Under the pieces are notes generated by a model that saw only the letters and a list, made by a program, of their open reading frames with translations, was not told where the DNA came from and did not search any database. This document shows, piece after piece, positions 3,162 to 56,606 of a DNA stretch of 64,000 nt. Each line of letters opens with the position of its first letter. Positions within the stretch are counted from its first letter, which is position 1. Both the position numbers and the translations under genes were made by a program. Origin of the DNA: a virus. Location: the IMG/VR virus record IMGVR_UViG_3300024581_000835, positions 3,622-67,621 of that record. One strand, written 5' to 3'.

Positions 3162-5443
3162 TGGCAGAGAAAAAAGATCCAATCGTTTTTGACTTCAACC
3201 TAACAGATTTAGCCAAAGCTGAAGCTGACGAAAATCGTTACGAGAAACCAGAGCTCAGTGTGGAGGATGCTCGCCATCAGCAGATGATGGACACCATTGC
3301 ACCTTACGCTAAAAAAGTGCGTCAGAAGAAAATGACACAAGTGGACATTGAGTATGCTACTCGCAATACCAAGATGATGCTGGTTATATGTCCTGAATGG
3401 GCACCAGAGTTTCCACCTTTTAACATGGCTAGACTAAGTGGCGTTGCCAAACGTGCTGGCTACGAAACACAAATACTGGATCTCAACATCAAAGCATACA
3501 ATGCTTTCCGCGATGATTGGCAACCAAATGAGAAAATACCTTTCCGCTTGTGGGATCCTAGTGCCAGTTGGCATTGGTTGGGCGACACATACATGCAGGA
3601 TATTCACCCTCTGTTAGAGCCAATACTGGAAAAAGGCATACAAGATATCATTAAATGGAATCCACAGTTGGTGGGTTTCACACAATATTATATTTCTGAA
3701 GAACCTACCAAATGGATGTGTGCACGATTAAAAGAATTACGTCCCGATATTAAAATTGCAGTGGGTGGCTCAAATGTGCAAAAAGATTGGTTTGCCAAAC
3801 ATGAGTTTTATGATTACATTTGCACAGGTGAAGGCGAAGCCGCTATACTTAATATACTAGACGACATTGAAAATGGTGTAGAGCGTGAGCCCATGTACAC
3901 CATCAAGCAAGCAGAAACAGAACGCATTGACATCAACGACATGCCTATGCCTGACTACAGTGGATTAGACTTCAACGAATACAAAGTGCCCAATGGTGTA
4001 ACATCAGAGTTCAGCAGAGGGTGTACTGCTAAGTGTACGTTCTGTGAAGAGACACACTTCTGGAAGTATCGTCAGCGTATGGCTGTGGACGTGGTCAGAG
4101 AAGCAGAATACCTGTACTATGAGAAAGGTGCAGACATCATGTGGTTCATTGATTCGTTAATAAATGGCAATGTAAACGAACTGCGAGCATTCGCACTAGC
4201 ACTCAAAGAAAAGAATGTTAAAATGCGCTGGACAGGCTATGCACGTTGCGACGGCAGAATGGACGATGCATACTTCAAAGACATATCCGAAGGCGGCTGT
4301 ATCATGTTAAACTACGGCTGTGAGAGTGGCTCGCAAAAAGTGCTAGACGACATGGCCAAGGGTGTAACCATCAAAGAGATGGAAGACAATTTCGCATCAG
4401 GTAAAAAGTATGGCGTAATGGCAGCCACCAACTGGATTGTGGGTTTCCCCACAGAAGAGCATGAAGACTTTGCACAAACAATGACATTCCTGTGGCGTAA
4501 TCGCAATGGCAACATCAACAACGTAGGTGCTGGTGTAGGAATGGCAGTAGGCCCAGAAACCATTGTAGGACAGAATCCACACAAGTATAACGTGAGTTAT
4601 CACAAGTTTATGAATCACTGGATCTCAAATGATCTACGCAAAGGCGGCACACATGTGATGCATCGTGTTAAACTGTTTCACATATTCTTAGACTTTATGA
4701 CTGGGTGTACAGATATTCCGTTTGGTTATCCTGTGCGTTATAATCTACGCAACGAGCACTATGTTATTCGACTGAATAATCCAGAAACTATTCACGAAAT
4801 AGAATACGAAAACTTTGATTACAACATAATTAAACCAGATATTAATCCTTTTGCAGACGCATTGGTAAATGAAATATGGCCTTTCTTGAGATTGTTATGG
4901 TTGACTCGAGGCGGTTATAGATTGCAACTGGACTTCAACCCCACAATTGATTTAAAAGAATTTGGTTCACAGTTTGGACCAGGTATGTTTTATGGACAGT
5001 ATAATTTTGTGATCACAGATGAAGGGCAGTGGAAAGCACACTTCCGTTATAAGTTTGATCAGAATGTGGAAAACCCATGGGACGGCAGACCAGATGATCG
5101 TAAAGGTGCGTTCTATGCACAAGACTACTCACGTATGCAATCAAATGCGGCCAAACGTGCTCGTAAGTTGGCCAAGCCCGAATGGGATTTGAACGAAGGA
5201 CGCAGTCAAAGTGATTTCGGTGATCTACTCAAAGAAGAAGAATGGTTAAACGAAAACATCGATTTCTCATTCGAGTACGAGTACAAAGACAAAGGCGAAT
5301 GGCAACGTGGCTCACACGACGTGGCAGTAAGCGACAAGATTTCAGCAGGTGTTAACGCAGACAATGTGCACCTGGGAGGCAAGCCCGAGGGTGTGGTTAT
5401 ATCAGACGCAATCAACATTGTGGATGTAAGTAACAATGGCTAA
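3161..5443 (+). CDS. Cobalamin-binding radical SAM enzyme (class B methyltransferase-like)
   Basis: SRGCTAKCTFC (CxxxCxxC), upstream B12-binding-type segment (VGGS...ICTGEGE), GCESGSQKVL and WIVGFPTE motifs. Confidence 0.85.
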   Translation: MAEKKDPIVFDFNLTDLAKAEADENRYEKPELSVEDARHQQMMDTIAPYAKKVRQKKMTQVDIEYATRNTKMMLVICPEWAPEFPPFNMARLSGVAKRAGYETQILDLNIKAYNAFRDDWQPNEKIPFRLWDPSASWHWLGDTYMQDIHPLLEPILEKGIQDIIKWNPQLVGFTQYYISEEPTKWMCARLKELRPDIKIAVGGSNVQKDWFAKHEFYDYICTGEGEAAILNILDDIENGVEREPMYTIKQAETERIDINDMPMPDYSGLDFNEYKVPNGVTSEFSRGCTAKCTFCEETHFWKYRQRMAVDVVREAEYLYYEKGADIMWFIDSLINGNVNELRAFALALKEKNVKMRWTGYARCDGRMDDAYFKDISEGGCIMLNYGCESGSQKVLDDMAKGVTIKEMEDNFASGKKYGVMAATNWIVGFPTEEHEDFAQTMTFLWRNRNGNINNVGAGVGMAVGPETIVGQNPHKYNVSYHKFMNHWISNDLRKGGTHVMHRVKLFHIFLDFMTGCTDIPFGYPVRYNLRNEHYVIRLNNPETIHEIEYENFDYNIIKPDINPFADALVNEIWPFLRLLWLTRGGYRLQLDFNPTIDLKEFGSQFGPGMFYGQYNFVITDEGQWKAHFRYKFDQNVENPWDGRPDDRKGAFYAQDYSRMQSNAAKRARKLAKPEWDLNEGRSQSDFGDLLKEEEWLNENIDFSFEYEYKDKGEWQRGSHDVAVSDKISAGVNADNVHLGGKPEGVVISDAINIVDVSNNG

Positions 5444-23106: not shown

Positions 23107-23322
23107 TCACTTACCGCTTAAAGCCATCTGCGCTTTAGCGTCCTCAATGTCACGAGCATCAATCAGCTCAACTCTACCAACTGGCACAACCTCTGTTAAG
23201 TGGTCTTTGCCCTCTACATATTCGGTCCTACCCAAGAAACATTCGCTAGCAATCTTTTCCAACATGCTTACAGGCACAACTAACTTGCCGTAGCCCTCAA
23301 TGATTGCATACTTCTTACTCAT
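23107..23322 (-). CDS. Hypothetical protein
   Basis: Coupled to the VWA gene by TAATG. Confidence 0.6.
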   Translation of the reverse strand: MSKKYAIIEGYGKLVVPVSMLEKIASECFLGRTEYVEGKDHLTEVVPVGRVELIDARDIEDAKAQMALSGK

Positions 23323-24638
23323 TACGCATTCTCCCTCTCGTAAGGAACAGTGATACCAAACGGTGCTACAGGAGGCTCTCCATAACCGCCACCGTGTACA
23401 ATAAACAGTGTGTCACAGTAAGACTCGTCGCCCCAACTATCCCAAGGATAACCGTCTGTGAACATGATAAACTTCTTGGGCAAAATGCCTTCTTCTTTCA
23501 TAAAGTTGAAACAGCAATCGAAGTCTGTGCCGCCACCGCCGCCCAACTCATAGTCCATAAACTCTTCCATGTTGTTCTCTGTGAACACCTCTGGGTTATG
23601 CACACTGGTGTCAAAGCAGAACAAATGAATCTTGTAGTTGGTGTATTGATCCATGATACCTTTAACTTCACTGAGGAAGTCACGTGCCATTTCGTCCATG
23701 ATAGAACCACTCATGTCCAGTGCAACCACGATGTCAATAGTCTCATCATAGTCCATACCAGGCAAGTAAAAGCCTGCATCTAAACCTTTGCGGCTCGGAT
23801 TCATCATTGTGTAATCACTCTTGATCACTGATTGAATCTGCATTGCAATAAGTTCACGCCAGTTCAGTTGAGGGTTCAACAAGTCCTTGAGCAGTTTGCG
23901 TACACCGCCAGGCAAGTTACCAGCACCACCGGTTGCCTTGGCGCTGTTCATCACAGCATTCTTCATTTCGTCTGTGATCTGTTGCTTCTCTTCGTCGCTA
24001 TACTTGATAGGACCGTTAGTACCATCGTTGTCACCTTCGCCGGGTGCATCTTTAGGCTCGCCGCCTTCACCTTCACCATCACCGTCTAAGTGTACATCGA
24101 GAGTCTCCACGTACTGTACACGACCTTCTTCTTCTGCTTCTTTGAACAGCTCGTCGTAAACTTCTAACCAGCTCTTGCCACGATACTTCCAATCGTGACA
24201 AATCTGTACCAAGTTAATCAACTCACCGATGTTGGCTTCAACTAGGTCACCGTTAATAACATAGTCTTGAGCAATGTTAGCAAGACGCCTATCGCGTTTA
24301 CCCATCATCTCGGGATTCATGTGATCATATACTGCGTGGAGCACTTCGTGTCCAACAAGGAACGTTACCTGCTCCTCGGACTTTGCATGCAATGCGGCAA
24401 CGAAGTTTTTGTTGTAGTAAAAGTTTCTGCCGTCTGTTGCGGCAGTAGGACACCACTTGGTAGCGTCAATAAACTTGAGTCGGGTAGCAATGTTACCAAA
24501 GAAGGGCTGGTTGATCAGCAATTTAACTTTGGCGCGAATAAGGAGGTCTTGTACAGCCTCGCCGCTTAATGTAGTTTCGGGAATAGTAACACCGTCTGCT
24601 GACGTGCTACGCTTGCTTACATCGGTTGCTGTTGACAT
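23322..24638 (-). CDS. Metallopeptidase-VWA protein (DUF2201-like)
   Basis: TAATDG and HEVLH zincin motif; C-terminal VWA domain with DMSGS, GGGTDF and FTDG (MIDAS). Confidence 0.85.
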   Translation of the reverse strand: MSTATDVSKRSTSADGVTIPETTLSGEAVQDLLIRAKVKLLINQPFFGNIATRLKFIDATKWCPTAATDGRNFYYNKNFVAALHAKSEEQVTFLVGHEVLHAVYDHMNPEMMGKRDRRLANIAQDYVINGDLVEANIGELINLVQICHDWKYRGKSWLEVYDELFKEAEEEGRVQYVETLDVHLDGDGEGEGGEPKDAPGEGDNDGTNGPIKYSDEEKQQITDEMKNAVMNSAKATGGAGNLPGGVRKLLKDLLNPQLNWRELIAMQIQSVIKSDYTMMNPSRKGLDAGFYLPGMDYDETIDIVVALDMSGSIMDEMARDFLSEVKGIMDQYTNYKIHLFCFDTSVHNPEVFTENNMEEFMDYELGGGGGTDFDCCFNFMKEEGILPKKFIMFTDGYPWDSWGDESYCDTLFIVHGGGYGEPPVAPFGITVPYERENA

Positions 24639-24647
24639 ACTTACTCT

Positions 24648-24693
24648 CCTAACTTATATAACTATTATAGCAAATTCTGGTGTATTGTCAACC
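24648..24693 (-). promoter_or_regulatory. Sigma70-like early promoter
   Basis: GGTTGACA-16 nt-TATAAT with TGn extended -10, followed by the AGTTAGG leader. Confidence 0.85.
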
Positions 24694-24707
24694 GTTTTGA
24701 ACTGCTG

Positions 24708-24720
24708 TAAGTCATTGATT
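24708..24720 (-). promoter_or_regulatory. IHF consensus site
   Basis: AATCAATGACTTA matches WATCAANNNNTTR, just upstream of the -35 box. Confidence 0.6.
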
Positions 24721-24730
24721 TGTATAAGGT

Positions 24731-24794
24731 GACCCCCCTTGCGGGGGGTCTAACACTGGGCATCTTAGTTAGGTAGGAGGAGTAGGCGCCCAGT
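24731..24794 (-). ncRNA. Candidate two-hairpin small RNA in the 3' UTR of the AAA ATPase gene
   Basis: Stem ACTGGGC/GCCCAGT with a C-rich loop CCTACTCCTCCTACCTAACTAAGA, then GACCCCCC-GCAA-GGGGGGTC (GNRA loop on the minus strand). Confidence 0.45.
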
Positions 24795-24802
24795 GAAACT
24801 GA

Positions 24803-25897
24803 TTAAGCGATATACTTAGTGTATCGCTCGCTGAATACTTTGTACACGTCTTTGTCAAGATCGGTACGGATATTCAACTTGATCTTGTAGTCCTTCATGA
24901 TAGTCTTGAACATCAGCACTACCATTTCGGGGTCGAAGTTGTCGTATGCAAATCGAGCCGCATTGTTGAAAAACTTCTTGAAATCGCCTTTGCTGTTTTC
25001 GTTCACTTCGTTGAGCTCGTAAGTGAGACCTACTACCAGGCTATACTTGGCCGAAATCTCATTACCAAGCGAAGGATCAAGTTTCTTCACATTGCCCTCT
25101 AGAACTTCTGCAGGGTTAGGCAAGCGTCCAGCAATCCTACGATGTTCAATGAACTTGCCGCTCATACCTTCGCCAACTGCACCTGCAATCTCCGCCTTCT
25201 GTTCAGAGATATCTGCATCCTCGAAGCCTTCGGTGTACAGCATGTTGCTCACACCGCTAACCCACGAACGAGGAGTAGCAAATGCCTGTGAACTGCTCTT
25301 AGGATCAAAGTCAAACAGATCCTGCTTGGCGTATGAAAGATAACCAATAACGTCAGGATGGACATCGTTGTTCATTGCCCAACTAAGCCAATCACCAAAG
25401 TCAACGGTCATGTTAACATGACGGAAACGGTTAGCAAGCGGAGCAGGCATACGGTAAGTAACACCGCGGTCAGTCTCACGGTTACCAGCCGCAATGATCA
25501 CAACATTGTCTGGCAAGTGATATTGACCTACACGCCTGTTCAGCACCAACTGATAGGCAGCCGCCTGTACACTGGGAGGTGCACTGTTGAGCTCGTCTAA
25601 GAACAACACAATAGTGTCGTACTGATCAGCCATCTCTTGAGTAGGCAAGTCTGCTGGAGGTGCCCACTCCATGGTGTTTGTTTCGGGGTTGCGGAAAGGA
25701 TAACCACGCAAGTCGGTGGGCTCAAGTAGAGCCAATCGCATATCAATCATGATAGCGTTATCTAACGACTCGGTAATCTGCTGAACGATATCGGACTTAC
25801 CAATACCGGGTGCACCCCACAAGAAAATGGGTTTCTTAGCCTTTACACTACGACCAAGAATGTTTACTGCGTTGCTGGGTTTAACTGAAAGTTCCAT
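24803..25897 (-). CDS. MoxR-like AAA+ ATPase
   Basis: Walker A GAPGIGKS, Walker B LFLDELN, AAGNRETD, NRF and TPRSW. Confidence 0.9.
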   Translation of the reverse strand: MELSVKPSNAVNILGRSVKAKKPIFLWGAPGIGKSDIVQQITESLDNAIMIDMRLALLEPTDLRGYPFRNPETNTMEWAPPADLPTQEMADQYDTIVLFLDELNSAPPSVQAAAYQLVLNRRVGQYHLPDNVVIIAAGNRETDRGVTYRMPAPLANRFRHVNMTVDFGDWLSWAMNNDVHPDVIGYLSYAKQDLFDFDPKSSSQAFATPRSWVSGVSNMLYTEGFEDADISEQKAEIAGAVGEGMSGKFIEHRRIAGRLPNPAEVLEGNVKKLDPSLGNEISAKYSLVVGLTYELNEVNENSKGDFKKFFNNAARFAYDNFDPEMVVLMFKTIMKDYKIKLNIRTDLDKDVYKVFSERYTKYIA

Positions 25898-25917
25898 GTA
25901 TTTCTCCTACCAAATAT

Positions 25918-25962
25918 CTAACTAACAATACTATAATAGCATCAATTGACACAAAGTCAACC
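25918..25962 (-). promoter_or_regulatory. Sigma70-like early promoter
   Basis: GGTTGACT-16 nt-TATTAT (TGC extended -10), with AGTTAG leader. Confidence 0.75.
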
Positions 25963-26136
25963 GTTTTTGATGCTATCTCTGAAAAAAACTTTGAATTGAG
26001 CAAGTGCATCATCACGATCTAACAGCTCTTCTCCCCACTGCTCACGCTCATCGTTACACTGATAGAACCACTCATTGAAGTTCTGATCAAAGGTGAGATC
26101 AACGTCATACACAAACTGTTTGGTTTCCATGATCAT
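25957..26136 (-). CDS. Small acidic hypothetical protein (59 aa, MIMETKQFVYD...)
   Basis: Not in the ORF track. SD AGGAG; ATGA overlap with the upstream ORF. Confidence 0.6.
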   Translation of the reverse strand: MIMETKQFVYDVDLTFDQNFNEWFYQCNDEREQWGEELLDRDDALAQFKVFFRDSIKNG

Positions 26137-26291
26137 AGCTCTTCTCCTTTCTTTTTTAATTCTTGTTGAAGTTTGTAATGCTCTGCCATTTTGCGATCAA
26201 CTGAATCAAGTATACGTTTGGTACGCCACAAAATGAAACGCATTTCTAATTTATGATAGGCAGACTTGATTCGGTTGAACAATGACATCAT
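26133..26291 (-). CDS. Small basic hypothetical protein (52 aa, MMSLFNRIKS...)
   Basis: Not in the ORF track. Start abuts the upstream stop. Confidence 0.55.
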   Translation of the reverse strand: MMSLFNRIKSAYHKLEMRFILWRTKRILDSVDRKMAEHYKLQQELKKKGEEL

Positions 26292-26506
26292 CACGCGGCC
26301 TCCATCACCCGGGTCACACTGTTGTGATTAATAATGACCACATCGCCTGCTGGGCGATAGATGGGACCGTCTTTGATGCTGTTAAACAGCTCAACGTGAT
26401 GGTTGATGCCACCGCCATACTTGACACGGCTCAAAATGACTTTGCCTGCTACCGGAATGTCTAGGTAACTTGCTTCTACTGCCAAACCTTCTAAATTCCA
26501 ACTCAT
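26291..26506 (-). CDS. Hypothetical early protein
   Basis: SD GGAGG; coupled ORF. Confidence 0.65.
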   Translation of the reverse strand: MSWNLEGLAVEASYLDIPVAGKVILSRVKYGGGINHHVELFNSIKDGPIYRPAGDVVIINHNSVTRVMEAA

Positions 26507-26991
26507 TACGCCGCCTCCAACTGATCAGCTAACTGTTCGGCAGTACACCACCCTTTGGCAGTCTTGTACTGACATTTATAATCTGAACGGTCACCCTCTT
26601 CCAGCGGAATCCACTGCTCGCTTTTGGCAAGGATTTCACGACGCATATAACCAAACTCGTCATTGTTGGTGACACGCAAACAAGTCCAGCGGTCCATCGT
26701 CCACTGGAACTCAATTACAGAATCCCAATCGTCACACTCTTTAGCAGAGTCCTCAACGATCTCCCAGCCCAAGATGTACTCCTCAAAGGCTTCGCTTTTG
26801 CTCTCAATGAGCTTGGTGAGAGTGGGAATGCCTTGATCGGCAATCTTGTTGATGTGAGCAGAGCTCAAGTCACGCACCACGTAGGTGTTGCCACCCTTGA
26901 ACTTCCAGTACTGAGGGCACTGGCCCTTGCCGTCCCAATCATGGGCGCCATAGTTCTCACGGTGTTGCGTTTGGATAACTAATTTTGACAT
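26506..26991 (-). CDS. Hypothetical early protein
   Basis: First gene after an early promoter; SD AGGAG. Confidence 0.75.
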   Translation of the reverse strand: MSKLVIQTQHRENYGAHDWDGKGQCPQYWKFKGGNTYVVRDLSSAHINKIADQGIPTLTKLIESKSEAFEEYILGWEIVEDSAKECDDWDSVIEFQWTMDRWTCLRVTNNDEFGYMRREILAKSEQWIPLEEGDRSDYKCQYKTAKGWCTAEQLADQLEAA

Positions 26992-27008
26992 GCTTTCTAC
27001 TCCTGATT

Positions 27009-27054
27009 CCTAACTAACAATACTAGTATAGCAAAAGGAGCAGAAAAGTCAACC
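27009..27054 (-). promoter_or_regulatory. Sigma70-like early promoter (near-identical to 56532..56577)
   Basis: GGTTGACT-16 nt-TATACT, then TTAGTTAGG leader. Confidence 0.85.
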
Positions 27055-27057
27055 ATA

Positions 27058-27117
27058 TAAGTGCTTGATTTTGTTAGATTTTTTAAAAAAATTTTCTCTA
27101 ATAAAATCAATGACTTA
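27058..27117. promoter_or_regulatory. Pair of inverted IHF consensus sites
   Basis: AATCAAGCACTTA (- strand, 27058-27070) and AATCAATGACTTA (+ strand, 27105-27117). Confidence 0.6.
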
Positions 27118-27717
27118 CAGCACCCCTGGATCTGTGTGGTTATTTGCTTCAAATGCCCACGCTCTTTCCCTGCACCACCAGCACACTCCGCATCTAACAT
27201 CGGCAGTTTCTGTGCAACTGTGACTCAACTCCATCACAAAATCCAGGCCTTGCTCAATGGCTAATCCTACTGTGAAGTCTTTGGTGAGATCGAAAAAAGG
27301 TTGGCATGCTTTTTCACTGTCCACACGCAAACGCTCAAAATGGTTTGATTGCATGTGATCTGGCTGTGCTGTTTCAGCAGTAAACACCACATCATTTTCC
27401 ATCATGGCAACCTGCATGCCAGTCCACACTTGCTGGCTGTGATGTGCGTTACCATCTCCACGCATTTTGTGTTTGAGCTTGATGCCTAGGTTGGACTGAA
27501 TGGCTTTGCTCATGTTGTCAGCATGCGTGATGCTGTTATCAGGTCTTGGAGATGTATAAAGTGTGATTATGTTGTCTAGGTCATGGTCCTGCACTATTTT
27601 GCACAAACACCAAGTAAGTGTGCCACTGTCTAACCCACCGCTTAACATGATACCAACACGCTTGTTGTTTTCCAACACTGGCATCAACATGTCTTTGGTT
27701 TGTTCAAACAGTTTCAT
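27115..27717 (-). CDS. QueC-like adenine-nucleotide alpha hydrolase (PP-loop, Zn-binding Cys cluster)
   Basis: GIMLSGGLDS PP-loop and SHSCTE..RCGVCWWCRERAWAF. Confidence 0.7.
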   Translation of the reverse strand: MKLFEQTKDMLMPVLENNKRVGIMLSGGLDSGTLTWCLCKIVQDHDLDNIITLYTSPRPDNSITHADNMSKAIQSNLGIKLKHKMRGDGNAHHSQQVWTGMQVAMMENDVVFTAETAQPDHMQSNHFERLRVDSEKACQPFFDLTKDFTVGLAIEQGLDFVMELSHSCTETADVRCGVCWWCRERAWAFEANNHTDPGVL

Positions 27718-27733
27718 AACACCCTCATAAAAT

Positions 27734-27809
27734 TGGTACTCCCAAGGGGGTTCGAACCCCTGTTCCCGCCGTGAAAGGGCGGTGTCCTAGACCACTAGAC
27801 GATGGGAGC
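27734..27809 (-). tRNA. trnE: tRNA-Glu(TTC)
   Basis: Cloverleaf, anticodon TTC, GGTTCGAA T-loop, encoded CCA. Confidence 0.97.
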
Positions 27810-27812
27810 AAA

Positions 27813-27889
27813 TGGCGGAATGGACGAGACTCGAACTCGCGACCCCCTGCGTGACAGGCAGGTATTCTAACCAACTGAACTACCACTCC
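27813..27889 (-). tRNA. trnD: tRNA-Asp(GTC)
   Basis: Cloverleaf, anticodon GTC, encoded CCA. Confidence 0.97.
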
Positions 27890-52026: not shown

Positions 52027-52101
52027 TGGCAGACGAGCACGGATTCGAACCGCGACCACGAGTTTTGGAGACTCACATGCTACCGTTAACACCACTCGCC
52101 T
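52027..52101 (-). tRNA. trnW: tRNA-Trp(CCA)
   Basis: Anticodon loop CTCCAAA; encoded CCA end. Confidence 0.93.
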
Positions 52102-52179
52102 TTACTACTCTGGATCTTGCTTGTTATAGAAGTATCTCTTCCAATACTCTCAAGACCCAGATATCTACACTCCAATACT

Positions 52180-52270
52180 TGGCGGAGAAGGAGGGATTCG
52201 AACCCTCGAAAGGCTACTAACCTTTGCCGGTTTTCAAGACCGGTGCATTCAACCACTCTGCCACCTCTCC
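52180..52270 (-). tRNA. trnS: tRNA-Ser(TGA)
   Basis: Anticodon TGA, long variable arm, encoded CCA. Confidence 0.96.
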
Positions 52271-52275
52271 GTACT

Positions 52276-52351
52276 TGGTAGGACTGGATGGAGTTGAACC
52301 ATCTACCTCCCGCTTATAAGACGGATGCTCTCACCGTTGAGCTACAGTCCC
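52276..52351 (-). tRNA. trnI: tRNA-Ile(TAT)
   Basis: Anticodon loop CTTATAA, A73, encoded CCA. Confidence 0.9.
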
Positions 52352-52629
52352 TCTTCTCCAGCAGGAGGTGCCTCATAGTCTGTGGGCAACTTATATCCTG
52401 TTGGGTACTTTGACAATGTTAATTTCTCTCCGTCCCATACACACCATATGTCTCTGACGCCAACTGTGAAGTGATGTGCTTCATAATCACCTAACAGAGA
52501 CTCTGGCAGTATTTCTCCTGTGCGCTTATCACGCATAGGCCCAGTGCCAATGATGTATTCCACTCTGGCGCCGCCCCATCTGTTCCATGCATCTTCGATA
52601 AGATCGAAGCAGTCTACCATGTGTTCCAT
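52342..52629 (-). CDS. Hypothetical protein between tRNAs (starts MEHMVD)
   Basis: Start moved to 52629 to exclude tRNA-Val. The last 10 nt overlap the tRNA-Ile 5' end. Confidence 0.6.
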   Translation of the reverse strand: MEHMVDCFDLIEDAWNRWGGARVEYIIGTGPMRDKRTGEILPESLLGDYEAHHFTVGVRDIWCVWDGEKLTLSKYPTGYKLPTDYEAPPAGEEGL

Positions 52630-52643
52630 ACTGTTTCCTAATT

Positions 52644-52719
52644 TGGTGGTCACTGCTGGGTTCGAACCAGCGACCCTCGCCTTGTAAGGGCGATGCTCTC
52701 CCAACTGAGCTAAGTGACC
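52644..52719 (-). tRNA. trnV: tRNA-Val(TAC)
   Basis: Anticodon loop CTTACAA; encoded CCA. Confidence 0.96.
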
Positions 52720-52724
52720 TTATT

Positions 52725-52801
52725 TGGTGGGCCTTGTAGGACTTGAACCTACGACCTGCCGATTATGAGTCGGATGCTCTAACCAACTGAGCTAAAGGCC
52801 C
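52725..52801 (-). tRNA. tRNA-CAT, probably Ile2 (lysidine type) rather than Met
   Basis: Anticodon CAT. Acceptor GGGCCTT has the C4-G69 and C5-G68 pairs that TilS reads in enterobacterial tRNA-Ile2. Confidence 0.8.
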
Positions 52802-52807
52802 TAAACT

Positions 52808-52882
52808 TTAATCGTCCTCGCCATCAATGATGACCCACGTTACAAATATTGCTACAGCAATAATACCGAGTACAAACTCCAT
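52808..52882 (-). CDS. 24-aa single-TM micro-protein (MEFVLGIIAVAIFVTWVIIDGEDD)
   Basis: TAATG-coupled to the upstream ORF. Confidence 0.4.
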   Translation of the reverse strand: MEFVLGIIAVAIFVTWVIIDGEDD

Positions 52883-53157
52883 TACTTACTTACCTTTTTA
52901 ATCATCAGACCATTATCAGTTTGCTCAACACACACAGTGTCGCCTGGCTTTATGTTAGCCGCTTTGCATACCTCTGGAGGAATGTTCATCAGCACGTGAT
53001 CCTCATCTCCGGGAATGTCTTCGAACAGGTCTTCGGACCTCACAGTGAGGCCATCAAAGTTTAGGTCATGCTTGATCAGTTTGTAAGTTTGCCAACCACA
53101 GTATACTACTACAACACATATAATCACAAACAACGGTAACAAATATAATGGATCCAT
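52882..53157 (-). CDS. Membrane-anchored protein with AbrB/SpoVT-like C-terminus
   Basis: N-terminal TM helix; IPPEVCKAANIKPGDTVCVEQTDNGLMIKK. Confidence 0.6.
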   Translation of the reverse strand: MDPLYLLPLFVIICVVVVYCGWQTYKLIKHDLNFDGLTVRSEDLFEDIPGDEDHVLMNIPPEVCKAANIKPGDTVCVEQTDNGLMIKKVSK

Positions 53158-53172
53158 TGTGCTCTCCTCATT

Positions 53173-53248
53173 TGGTGCCGGCAGAGAGAATCGAACTCCC
53201 GACCTGATGCTTACAAGGCAACTGCTCTACCTGCTGAGCTATACCGGC
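53173..53248 (-). tRNA. trnT: tRNA-Thr(TGT)
   Basis: Anticodon loop CTTGTAA; encoded CCA. Confidence 0.96.
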
Positions 53249-53253
53249 ATGTT

Positions 53254-53329
53254 TGGCTCCGCGACCTGGGCTCGAACCAGGGACCGATGGATTAACAGTC
53301 CATTGCTCTACCAACTGAGCTATCGCGGA
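53254..53329 (-). tRNA. trnN: tRNA-Asn(GTT)
   Basis: Anticodon loop CTGTTAA; encoded CCA. Confidence 0.96.
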
Positions 53330-53375
53330 ATAAATTGTTGCCTCTCATTTTACCCTGGGAGAGGCACACCAGAAT

Positions 53376-53462
53376 TGGTACCAGTGGCCGGACTCGAACC
53401 GGCACAGCATTTCTGCCGAGGGATTTTAAGTCCCTTGTGTCTACCAATTTCACCACACTGGC
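53376..53462 (-). tRNA. trnL: tRNA-Leu(TAA)
   Basis: Anticodon TAA, long variable arm, encoded CCA. Confidence 0.96.
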
Positions 53463-53603
53463 ATGTTTTGTTACTTAGTTGAATAGGCCCCGCTTGCCTT
53501 ATTTGTTTCGGCTCCAACGCACATCACGACTCCGGTATGTAGAGTTAACATACAAAATCCTTTGCCGCCTATTCTTGCCCTTAAAATATTACCCTCTTTT
53601 GTT

Positions 53604-53680
53604 TGGTCGGAGAAGCAGGATTCGAACCTACGACCCCCTGCTCCCAAAGCAGGTGCTCTACCAAGCTGAGCTATACTCCG
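53604..53680 (-). tRNA. trnP: tRNA-Pro(TGG)
   Basis: Anticodon loop TTTGGGA; encoded CCA. Confidence 0.96.
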
Positions 53681-53839
53681 TTATACTCGGACCGCCTTAA
53701 TGCTGTCCAATCCAGTGCCAGTGTAACGACTTGCACCACCATGCTTCATGTAATACTGCTCACGAGCACTGTACTCACTCATCGCCCTGACATACCCTTT
53801 GCTACTACCGCTAACAAAAATTTCCCAAATGTAAATCAT
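53681..53839 (-). CDS. Small hypothetical protein (52 aa, MIYIWEIFVSG...)
   Basis: Not in the ORF track. SD AGGAG; sits between tRNA-Arg and tRNA-Pro. Confidence 0.6.
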   Translation of the reverse strand: MIYIWEIFVSGSSKGYVRAMSEYSAREQYYMKHGGASRYTGTGLDSIKAVRV

Positions 53840-53891
53840 CTTCTACTCCTTGTGCAAATGGCGTCTACTGTTTTCAACGCATTCACTTCTT

Positions 53892-53968
53892 TGGCACGCC
53901 CGGCTGGACTCGAACCAGCAACCTACAGCTTAGAAGGCTGTTGCACTATCCAATTGTGCTACGAGCGC
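53892..53968 (-). tRNA. trnR: tRNA-Arg(TCT)
   Basis: Anticodon loop CTTCTAA; encoded CCA. Confidence 0.96.
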
Positions 53969-53976
53969 ATTAAACT

Positions 53977-54396
53977 TTAATCTAACTTGTCAAACTCAGC
54001 AACCATTTTGTGTTGCAGACGTCGAGCTTCTTTTTCCCAGGGCTGATCCCAGTAATCGATATTTTCACAGTACTTGTTGCTCTTCCATTGAGTGAGAGCT
54101 GAATCAAGTTCTCCTTTTGCAAACTGTTTTACATGCACCATTTCGTGTGCTAGTGTACTTAGCCAATTGCCAAACAGTGCTACGTCAATTATGAAATTTC
54201 TGTTGTCTAAACATTCGCACAAACCTTCTGTGCCAATATCACCAACATGAATCTTGCTGTGCATACGCACCACAATGTTTGTGCGTAGTCGACTGATACC
54301 AAGTTGCTTGGCAAAACTACGCATGGCTAGAATAGCATAAGCCTGTAAGCCAGTATCCAACACACCACCTTTCGGCCCTTCAACGGAAATATTCAA
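53977..54396 (-). CDS. Zincin-like metallopeptidase
   Basis: TLAHEMVHVKQ and DQPWEKEA. Confidence 0.75.
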   Translation of the reverse strand: MNISVEGPKGGVLDTGLQAYAILAMRSFAKQLGISRLRTNIVVRMHSKIHVGDIGTEGLCECLDNRNFIIDVALFGNWLSTLAHEMVHVKQFAKGELDSALTQWKSNKYCENIDYWDQPWEKEARRLQHKMVAEFDKLD

Positions 54397-54405
54397 TGTA
54401 GTCTC

Positions 54406-55095
54406 CTATTGGATAAATGCGACACGATTTACCATGGTCTCTTTGCCCCCATGGTACTTGCTTATGTCTTGCGACTTCACATACGCTTTGATAGTAATAA
54501 TACTACCCACTGCTAGGTTTGTCAAGTCTTTTGAGTCGTTGATGAAAAATTTAATGATGTTGCCCTCAGAACTGCAACATACCAAACTGCTACCAACGCT
54601 AGAAATGTAGCGAATGTTTTCAACAACAATCTTCTCAAATGCACAACGGGTGTGCAATTTGCCAACAAACTCACTGGTTTCACACAGTTCAGCTTCACGC
54701 TCTGTCCATGTGTCTTGGTTCAGTTTGTTAAGATATACTTTAGGCAAACTGGCCGCAATGCCAATTTGGTCTTTAGCAACATACTCAGAGGTGATTAACT
54801 TGAGCACGTTCTTTTCGAAATCAGTGAGGTCACGTTCCATGGCCTTGAAACTGAGACCCGACAAATAATCTACAATGTCATTCGCCTGTACATAGTCAGC
54901 TTCTGTGATGTTCACAATCTGTCGAGTAGGCTTGTTTTCGCCCTTAACGTGTGTGCCCAGGAAGTGGTTGTACAGCAATTTGCTGTTCGGCGTCAAACCT
55001 TCTTCGTTGTGGATATCATGGCTTTTGATAAAGCCCTTGTTAATTCTGTGTATAGCGCAACTAGCCGCTAGTACTTCGTTAACTGTAAATGACAT
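54406..55095 (-). CDS. Hypothetical early protein, possible C-terminal OB fold
   Basis: First gene after an early promoter; beta-rich C-terminus ending ETMVNRV. Confidence 0.65.
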   Translation of the reverse strand: MSFTVNEVLAASCAIHRINKGFIKSHDIHNEEGLTPNSKLLYNHFLGTHVKGENKPTRQIVNITEADYVQANDIVDYLSGLSFKAMERDLTDFEKNVLKLITSEYVAKDQIGIAASLPKVYLNKLNQDTWTEREAELCETSEFVGKLHTRCAFEKIVVENIRYISSVGSSLVCCSSEGNIIKFFINDSKDLTNLAVGSIITIKAYVKSQDISKYHGGKETMVNRVAFIQ

Positions 55096-55110
55096 TCTGC
55101 ACTCCTAATT

Positions 55111-55155
55111 CCTAACTATGTGTACATTATACACGGATCGAGCCCAAAGTCAACC
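55111..55155 (-). promoter_or_regulatory. Sigma70-like early promoter
   Basis: GGTTGACT-16 nt-TATAAT with AGTTAGG leader. Confidence 0.8.
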
Positions 55156-55193
55156 GTTTTTGGGCATTAAAAAATTGTAATAAAAACAATAAC

Positions 55194-55814
55194 TTAGCGT
55201 GTATATGGCTGTGGTTTTTCAGAAGATACAACTAAATTGTAGATATCTTCCCACTTTTTAGCCACAAATGAGCCATCAAAATTCATGTTGTGTCCGTGCT
55301 CAATTAGGATGCCTTGAAAGCCTGCTTTTACACCTGCTTCTACATTCTCTGGCTTGTCCTCAATCCAGTAGTTACCTTGGTACTTTTGAGCAAGTTCTGC
55401 TAATGCTTCATCCTTGTCAGCACCTGTTTCTAAACAGATCACATCAACAAAGTAGTCGCCAAATATCTTCTTGAGGTTACGTTCCCTTAGTGCTTGTGCA
55501 TATGGATCAGTACTTAGGCTGGTTAGGACAAGAAACTTGTATTGGTGTTTCTCTGCTAACAGCTTCACATAGTACTGTGCATCACGCAACGGCGGCAAAA
55601 AGCCAATTGCCGCGCTTTCATTGAATGTCTTAATCAACTTTCTGGCTTGGTCCTTGGTAATACCATAACGTTCGCCAATGTCGTACATGAACTGAAAGCC
55701 TTCTACCTTCTCATGTCCATGATGTTCCATCCACACAGAAAAACCTTCTTCCCAATCTAGGAGAACGCCGTCACAGTCTGTGAGAATGATCTTCTCTTTG
55801 TTAAATTTTTTCAT
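55194..55814 (-). CDS. HAD-family 5'(3')-deoxyribonucleotidase-like phosphatase
   Basis: LTDCDGVLLDW, LTSL and WIEDKPEN. Confidence 0.85.
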   Translation of the reverse strand: MKKFNKEKIILTDCDGVLLDWEEGFSVWMEHHGHEKVEGFQFMYDIGERYGITKDQARKLIKTFNESAAIGFLPPLRDAQYYVKLLAEKHQYKFLVLTSLSTDPYAQALRERNLKKIFGDYFVDVICLETGADKDEALAELAQKYQGNYWIEDKPENVEAGVKAGFQGILIEHGHNMNFDGSFVAKKWEDIYNLVVSSEKPQPYTR

Positions 55815-55847
55815 TAATTTTTTAATATGGATCTCCTTAATCCTGCT

Positions 55848-55924
55848 TGGCGCGGCTGTAGGGATTCGAACCCCAGACCTTCTGGTTCGTAGCCAGATGC
55901 TCTATCCTGCTGAGCTACAGCCGC
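55848..55924 (-). tRNA. trnR: tRNA-Arg(ACG)
   Basis: Anticodon loop CTACGAA; encoded CCA. Confidence 0.96.
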
Positions 55925-56176: not shown

Positions 56177-56515
56177 TTACATGCTCCAGTATCTTTCAGT
56201 GAACGGATCGCAAACGCCACCTACATCATTCACACTCATTGTGATGGTGGACTCTTTGCCTGTGCCTGGCATGATGCCAGTCCTGGTGACTTGCTTCTCA
56301 ATATTATCATAGTAATACTGAGCTTCAGCAATGCCGTAGATGAACTGCGGATCCTTGTCGATGTTGTAATCCGCTTCTTCTTGAGCCGCTTTGCTCAACC
56401 TGGTGATAGCCGCTTTGGCAGCCGCTTCAGACTTGTAACTTGAAGTTACTCTGTAAGGTCTATGCTTAACAATCTCTTTGATTGCTGTGCTTGCTTTGTT
56501 ATAAATCACGTACAT
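56177..56515 (-). CDS. Hypothetical early protein
   Basis: First gene after an early promoter; SD GGAG. Confidence 0.7.
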   Translation of the reverse strand: MYVIYNKASTAIKEIVKHRPYRVTSSYKSEAAAKAAITRLSKAAQEEADYNIDKDPQFIYGIAEAQYYYDNIEKQVTRTGIMPGTGKESTITMSVNDVGGVCDPFTERYWSM

Positions 56516-56531
56516 ATTTTCTACTCCATTT

Positions 56532-56606
56532 CCTAACTAACAATATTAGTATAGCAAAACTAGCAGAAAAGTCAACCGTTTTTTCTATAATAAAATCAAT
56601 AACTTA
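56532..56606 (-). promoter_or_regulatory. Sigma70-like early promoter plus IHF consensus site
   Basis: GGTTGACT-16 nt-TATACT; AATCAATAACTTA at 56594-56606. Confidence 0.85.

Follow-up and report, generated by a model that had tools for sequence, protein, structure and literature searches.

To our knowledge, self-regulation through pairing of a message's two untranslated ends has been described for only a handful of bacterial mRNAs, icaR and hbs among them, and these two cases rest on mutagenesis in one species. In Staphylococcus aureus, a UCCCCUG motif in icaR's 3′ untranslated region (3′ UTR) pairs with the Shine-Dalgarno (SD) sequence, blocks the initiation complex and yields a substrate for RNase III (PMC3868564), with the choice between cis and trans pairing left open by the authors (Ruiz de los Mozos et al. 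2013, PMC3868564). In Bacillus subtilis, a 14-bp interaction of the hbs 5′ UTR with its 3′ UTR modulates RNase Y cleavage and protects the leader (Braun et al. 2017, PMC5737220). Anti-SD 8-mers put into a 3′ UTR repress a reporter (PMC12697547), and the CcsR RNAs arise by processing of the ccaF 3′ UTR (PMC8034643). We found no report in the literature of an anti-leader hairpin in a phage 3′ UTR.

The site described here lies in a stretch of 64,000 nucleotides (the window), a 64-kb part of a 70-kb viral contig from IMG/VR. Since CheckV rates this 70-kb contig as ∼20% complete, we take it to come from a jumbo phage; when the window was compared with phage records by megablast, tRNAs were the sole matches. 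The site is on the minus strand, along which the genes run, between the gene for a MoxR-type AAA+ ATPase of 364 aa (24803-25897, minus strand; Pfam AAA_3, AAA_5 and bpMoxR; PHROG 1297 ATPase, E = 4.5e-98) and, downstream of it, a metallopeptidase-VWA gene assigned by family match to DUF2201 (23322-24638, minus strand).

Two hairpins follow the AAA stop codon. The one that we call the anti-leader hairpin (24754-24795, minus strand) was delineated by RNAfold, descriptor scans, a covariance model (R1) and comparison with relatives. It starts 7 nt past the stop codon, and its arms (5′ arm 24795-24788, 3′ arm 24761-24754) enclose a pyrimidine-rich loop of 26 nt (24787-24762). The first-pass annotation had drawn this hairpin with a 7-bp stem; the hairpin exists as claimed, with a stem of 8 Watson-Crick pairs plus one possible G-U pair, and the anti-SD word that had been read in its loop, CUCCUCCU, is present there. 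The second, terminator-like hairpin begins 3 nt later (24750-24731, minus strand) and has the 8-bp GC stem and GCAA tetraloop described before, evident in the sequence and also returned by RNAfold. Folding of the whole tail gave exactly these two hairpins at −34.2 kcal/mol (z = −4.2), a value that none of 200 shuffled sequences equalled. The U tract after the GC hairpin is weak in this phage and a terminator scan made no call there; the GC hairpin is found in all lineages, and a clear T run follows its homologue in most relatives. Two descriptor scans and model R1 found the anti-leader hairpin once in the 64-kb window.

To place the element in its relatives, we fetched 80 viral and 80 metagenomic loci with homologues of the AAA protein. 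The two-hairpin tail stands directly after the AAA stop in every lineage with at least 54% AAA identity and also in L066 (51%). In these relatives the gap from stop to stem is 2 to 14 nt (median, 7), the loop is 14 to 30 nt (median, 25) and the stem is 6 to 15 bp, and the anti-leader hairpin occurs as one copy per locus, always 3′ of the AAA stop. Stem sequences are unrelated between clades and the loop words CCUAC and ACUCC(U/C)UAC are kept, the opposite of a conserved stem around a free loop: here the stems vary freely and the loop motifs persist. None of the cultured phages has the anti-leader hairpin; the nearest isolates, the PA5oct group (46.6% AAA identity), carry a plain terminator only. 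An exact 16-mer scan of viral contigs returned the known relatives and three chance coding matches, and nothing else.

The stem is maintained by compensatory change. In alignment A4, which covers the close clade, is the sole usable one and is the source of model R1, 96.9% of the cells are paired and both sides change in four of the eight pairs. Its covariation score of 0.506, compared with 0.240 for shuffled alignments, was reached in 0 of 500 shuffles, and the signal was lost when partners were slid by 1 to 3 columns. MAFFT alignments of the divergent hairpins (A1, A2 and A3) misaligned the stems and were left out of the pair counts. Model R1 gave one match per locus at the expected place and did not reach the distant lineages even with its filters off; because it is too narrow for them, the statistics across all lineages were obtained with a loop-anchored script of our own. 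These comprise 31 distinct 8-bp stems, 96% paired compared with 47% for arms mixed from different stems, and four to six pair types occur at every position. Covariation in related genomes, which the first-pass annotation had proposed as a check, is therefore seen in the compensatory stem changes and also in the loop and leader, which co-vary across lineages as set out below.

The first-pass annotation had looked for the partner of the loop among the leaders of other early genes and overlooked another member of this leader family, the leader of the AAA gene itself. A sigma70-like consensus scan places the AAA promoter at 25933-25960 (minus strand; −35 TTGACT, 16-nt spacer, −10 TATTAT, 10 of 12 consensus matches, TG before the −10 box), followed by a 35-nt leader (25898-25932, minus strand) with a 5′ box (25918-25925) and an SD box (25904-25910), both complementary to loop positions 24765-24779. 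In the window, these 15 contiguous loop bases can pair as 8 + 7 nt with the 5′ box and with bases −13 to −7, the SD region, leaving a 7-nt bulge in the leader. The duplex is predicted at −18.7 kcal/mol, an energy that ignores the topology of pairing a loop with a strand and that 0.3% of shuffled loops equalled. The leader alone is nearly unstructured (−3.4 kcal/mol in the window). RNAcofold, which models the pairing only by opening the hairpin stem, was used just to show that leaders are unstructured, and energy matrices of whole 3′ UTRs against leaders were discarded as noisy, the noise coming from the GC terminators.

Every related lineage has a consensus host-type promoter (GGTTGAC, 16 to 17 nt, TATAAT-like) directly upstream of the AAA gene and then a leader of ∼30 to 35 nt, and the gene is therefore a self-contained predicted unit. 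In all lineages this unit runs from promoter and leader through the AAA ORF to the anti-leader hairpin and the terminator, its ends being consensus predictions; we infer both the transcript ends and the pairing in the cell from sequence. Loop and own leader are complementary in all 51 distinct combinations, with 7 to 11 contiguous Watson-Crick pairs centred on the SD, and a second complementary block often coincides with the first bases after the −10 box. The pairing was better than that of shuffled loops in 10 of 11 lineages (p ≤ 0.012). When loops and leaders were reassigned in permutation tests, which ignore phylogeny, the true assignment was the best of 5040 for seven distinct clades, and for 25 representatives it stood at z = −5.4, with 0 of 200000 permutations as good.

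Individual lineages illustrate how private these words can be. L011, L122 and L123 share an 11-mer of their own, reaching from the SD toward the start codon, that is matched between loop and leader; in the 122-kb record of L011 it is confined, with one mismatch allowed, to the AAA leader and to its complement in the loop. L066 has a 10 + 11-nt match built on a different SD flavour, and in the 115-kb record of L066/L067 the exact 11-mer is again confined to the AAA leader and, as complement, to the loop. L006, L010 and L016 each have loop and leader words of their own. Among local leaders, the AAA gene's own ranks first in 9 of 14 loci, and its perfect match is longer than that of the downstream VWA leader in 30 lineages, shorter in 7 and tied in 11; in the L016/L152 clade, the VWA leader equals or surpasses the AAA leader in its predicted pairing with the loop. 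In L011 and L144, the boxes lie in the loop in reverse order relative to the leader, so that a single uninterrupted helix cannot include both. The match amounts in many lineages to little more than the common SD flavour of the phage (GGUAGGAG); some of the co-variation may thus reflect the SD style of the whole genome and not a single leader.

Complementarity of the two ends extends to distant AAA lineages that have no anti-leader hairpin and whose UTR sequences are unrelated. In L081, a 10-nt complementarity between 5′ and 3′ UTR overlaps the stop codon (3960-4003 with 5054-5070), and in L047 and L048 the leader matches the first 25 nt after the AAA stop over 8 + 7 nt, with a compensatory change between the two. 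Other AAA lineages have different short conserved words right after the stop, ahead of the terminator, within the first 18 nt in L025, L030, L033, L036 and L040 and within the first 25 nt in L050, L058, L064, L068, L076 and L080. One of these words includes UUCUCCUG and another GCUAGUCAC; no convincing partner for them was found in the leaders of these lineages.

Complementarity of the loop to other early leaders, the original claim, also holds for this phage. The bipartite 9 + 4 + 8 pattern of the loop complement occurs without mismatch at 24765-24785 (plus strand), which lies within the loop itself, and at 26997-27017 (minus strand), the early leader named before, where the match has the same 9 + 8 nt and the same 4-nt spacing; with three mismatches it occurs at 55099-55119 (minus strand). 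These three matches in the window compare with 0.07 expected, and 0 of 100 shuffles reached three. The similar leaders that had been reported ahead of the genes at 24638, 55095 and 56515 were all found. The strongest predicted partner is the promoter and leader of a 161-aa gene (gene 26506-26991; promoter and leader 26992-27052, minus strand; 9 + 8 nt, −25.4 kcal/mol), followed by that of a 112-aa gene (56516-56575, minus strand), a near-copy of the leader cassette and a predicted trans partner at −23.5 kcal/mol. The leader of a 229-aa gene of PHROG 2319, a family of unknown function, is a weaker member of the family (55096-55153, minus strand; −20.3 kcal/mol), and the leader of the metallopeptidase-VWA gene, behind a perfect TTGACA-16-TATAAT promoter (24639-24691, minus strand), is a moderate partner at −14 to −15.5 kcal/mol. 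The gene at 26991 matched no known family, and the 112-aa gene at 56515 matched no Pfam or PHROG family.

Among ∼131 start regions, the gene at 26991 ranks first as a target, that at 56515 second and that at 55095 fourth; the own leader is only the third-best target in the window, behind the leaders at 26997-27017 and 56516-56547. Three promoter-leader cassettes (27052-26992, 25960-25898 and 56575-56516) share an almost identical sequence from the −10 box up to and including the SD, which suggests, by analogy with the promoter early stem-loops (PeSLs) of T4-type phages, that they are duplicated mobile regulatory cassettes. From 26991 to 25957 the ORFs are tightly packed, with four small ORFs before the AAA gene, and a scan of the intergenic parts between the 26992-27052 promoter and the AAA gene found no terminator-like site. 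A transcript from the promoter at 27052 therefore probably reads through the four small ORFs and the AAA gene to both hairpins, and, as it would share the AAA tail, the 26997-27017 target may also act in cis. The block 25957-27052 with its four small ORFs is missing from the equivalent place in the relative L003.

Because across lineages the loop is matched most consistently by the own leader, the model that best accommodates these data is 5′ UTR-3′ UTR pairing of one message, and we consider it probable that pairing of the loop with the SD-containing leader of its own message controls translation or stability. The anti-leader hairpin would then serve the early MoxR-AAA message as a conserved 3′ UTR regulatory element, its large single-stranded loop holding the complement of the message's own SD region and, in many lineages, also of the leader's first bases. 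Loop and leader could pair within one molecule or between copies, and in this phage the loop should also pair with three or four other messages bearing copies of the leader cassette. Pairing would cover the ribosome-binding site and so limit translation, and might create a target for a double-stranded RNase, as in icaR. The sequences support selection of the loop as antisense to SD-containing early leaders. To that extent the earlier proposal of an RNA antisense to early leaders stands, loop and leader co-varying as it implies; its choice of partner is not supported across lineages, the most consistent one being the leader of the AAA gene itself. On the sequences compared, paralogous leaders join the predicted partners in this phage only.

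The hairpin is best read, by comparison, as an icaR-like pairing of 3′ UTR and 5′ UTR that would occlude the SD, a likeness of mechanistic class and not of sequence family. As in icaR, a short monocistronic message carries, within its 3′ UTR, a pyrimidine-rich anti-SD word complementary to its own SD region, and by analogy blocked ribosome loading and a double-stranded RNase substrate would be expected here too. Given the predicted transcript ends, one transcript holds both the SD and, in its 3′ UTR, the anti-SD word; the SD region is covered and compensatory changes are present, in the form of natural co-variation only. The bacterial icaR differs from this phage element, in which the anti-leader sequence sits in a dedicated hairpin loop 2 to 14 nt past the stop and before the terminator, and in which the pairing is often bipartite, taking in the leader 5′ end and the SD. 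The evidence differs as well, mutagenesis for icaR and natural co-variation across dozens of lineages for the phage element. The element would share with hbs the long-range pairing of both UTRs of one short, highly expressed message, and in several phage lineages the predicted pairing takes in the leader's first bases and could protect the 5′ end. In hbs, however, the leader is protected from cleavage and the SD is not occluded, and if the phage element acted alike the sign of regulation would be opposite. Since the hbs pairing is protective, the sign of the effect is only inferred here, and by analogy with icaR we favour repression over 5′-end protection as in hbs.

A wider function had also been put forward, the sequestration of SD sequences in general. 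This is unlikely, because CCUCCU is not conserved (the loops of relatives carry ACUCCCUAC or ACUCCUAC in its place) and only four to five of the ∼131 start regions in the window are strong targets. More credible, though still in our estimation unlikely, is the model of the first-pass annotation, a small RNA that comes from the 3′ UTR and acts in trans: a processed tail of ∼75 nt (anti-leader hairpin plus terminator) would accumulate as a stable RNA and pair with early leaders that form a regulon, the VWA leader among them, shutting off or coordinating early translation as infection proceeds. If that were true, the phage would encode a switch for early-gene translation. The best window targets are indeed the leaders of other genes (26991, 56515 and 55095), and an own leader at −18.7 behind targets at −25.4 and −23.5 kcal/mol fits a trans regulon as well as it fits cis pairing; the 26997-27017 leader, however, is probably on a transcript with the same 3′ end and may itself be a cis target. 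Likewise, in the L016 clade the loop finds its best local partner in the VWA leader, which in most lineages is beaten by the own leader. A conserved seed directly before a terminator hairpin is the layout of known 3′ UTR-derived small RNAs and of CcsR, whereas the U tail in this phage is weak. Early leaders are duplicated in related genomes too, yet L011, whose matched 11-mer occurs nowhere else in 122 kb, would have no regulon beyond its own leader.

The remaining alternatives give the complementarity no primary role, or none at the level of RNA. The loop could be where an RNA-binding protein of the host or the phage binds or directs processing, or the whole hairpin a stabiliser against 3′ exonucleases, with the likeness to the leader secondary. 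Hairpins at 3′ ends commonly protect messages, and CCUAC occurs two or three times in the large loop in the manner of protein-binding arrays. A stabiliser does not need a conserved loop, though, and a protein site leaves unexplained both the lineage-private loop words mirrored in the leader of the same gene and the complementary but unrelated UTR pairs of distant lineages; we regard this explanation as improbable. Least probable of all, in our judgement, is an explanation at the DNA level, in which the loop is an inverted copy of a promoter-leader cassette, left by PeSL-like recombination, or a double-stranded operator working in two orientations, with no RNA-RNA function. Promoter-leader cassettes are clearly duplicated in this genome, a 16-nt motif stands in both orientations upstream of two promoters, and T4-type phages undergo shuffling by way of composite terminator/promoter cassettes (PMC4122927). 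An inverted relic, the alternative that the first-pass annotation had kept in reserve, would nevertheless not account for a hairpin retained with compensatory stem changes (31 stem variants) down to ∼51 to 54% AAA identity and fixed at one place across this deep divergence. The idea fails on this maintenance of the stem and on the extent of the mirrored sequence, which is confined to the transcribed leader and in every case leaves out the promoter hexamers. Box spacing varies from 0 to 7 nt in the loop and from 4 to 21 nt in the leader, which RNA looping can tolerate and a protein operator would not. Three smaller candidates were also rejected: a plus-strand ORF behind the loop complement has 7 to 8 codons and is not conserved, a Rho-utilisation site would be too short, and the CACC word after the second hairpin, considered as a mimic of the 16S 3′ end, is not conserved.

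No Rfam family fits the site, as judged by searching the window at the gathering threshold and the site together with seven related loci at an E-value threshold. The closest in design are the cuckoo/CcsR RNAs of alphaproteobacteria (alpha-r14, RF02344), which likewise have highly variable stems and a conserved pyrimidine-rich anti-SD loop motif (PMC4615179, PMC8034643). They consist of two to four adjacent hairpins each with CCUCCUCCC, whereas in the phage a single hairpin bears CCUAC/ACUCCUAC words; host range is another difference, and the targets in the phage would be its own leaders. Membership was rejected because RF02344 scored 11.1 bits (E = 7.7), short of its gathering score of 58.8, in addition to the single hairpin and the other motif. 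A whalefall-1 match (RF01762; 22.7 bits against 37) lay on the non-transcribed strand with its second helix broken and was found in none of the seven related loci; it was treated as a chance likeness to the GC hairpin. Sub-threshold matches to Chlorobi-1 and ar14 were likewise rejected.

Two phage systems share parts of the design. As summarised elsewhere, the c4 RNA of phages P1 and P7 is a phage RNA whose loops are complementary to stretches flanking a ribosome-binding site in a transcript of the same region, and its specificity evolves through matched changes in RNA and target (PMC12197685). As described there, c4 is a separately processed immunity RNA, encoded upstream of its target, that controls ant, and not a 3′ UTR element of the gene it regulates (PMC12197685). 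The PeSLs of T4-type phages combine a terminator stem-loop with a closely following host-type early promoter between early genes (PMC2839356, PMC4122927). The layout here is similar, the GC hairpin being followed ∼40 nt downstream by the perfect TTGACA-16-TATAAT promoter, and near-identical promoter-leader cassettes are repeated in the genome in both cases. PeSLs are described as recombination substrates, and a second hairpin with a loop antisense to a leader is not reported for them.

The anti-leader hairpin lies so near the stop codon that terminating ribosomes could, we speculate, modulate it. In a broader form of this idea, tail-leader pairing of the MoxR-AAA message would be a general translation-sensing design of large phages, reinvented with unrelated sequences and with a private SD/anti-SD code in each lineage, which we think doubtful, more so than a trans-acting small RNA. 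With the anti-leader sequence 2 to 14 nt from the stop (overlapping it in L047 and L081), each terminating ribosome would melt it and leave the leader open, and the message would lock shut only after the last ribosome had left, making it a self-timing early mRNA of one burst.

If own-message pairing is correct, a whole clade of uncultured jumbo phages would use, in an early message, the logic known from bacterial UTR pairs, with the compensatory-mutation experiment already done many times by evolution. The element is a compact part of ∼45 nt that can be tested easily, and it suggests a way in which phages may control, with no regulatory protein, how much of an early remodelling ATPase is made or when. 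By the same comparison, it may serve as a warning for annotation: what is labelled a "terminator region" behind a phage gene can conceal a second, functional hairpin.

Several other features of the window were recorded. The 16-nt word mentioned above occurs in opposite orientations at 24705-24720 (minus strand) and 27105-27120 (plus strand), each shortly upstream of a sigma70-like −35 box, and could be bound by a factor or act like an UP element; its count in the window is no higher than chance (3 matches with up to three mismatches, compared with 1.1 expected). Words akin to it stand between the terminator and the next promoter in the relatives L008, L010, L011 and L013. Thirteen tRNA genes form two clusters (27734-27889 and 52027-55924, minus strand), the first of which adjoins a truncated QueC-like ORF (27115-27717), and the tRNA-Asp is ∼94% identical to the enterobacterial tRNA-Asp. 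A glutamine riboswitch aptamer (RF01739; 58071-58122, minus strand) scored 54 bits against a gathering score of 35, with a terminator-like hairpin before it and an SD and a small ORF (start 58051, minus strand) directly after it.
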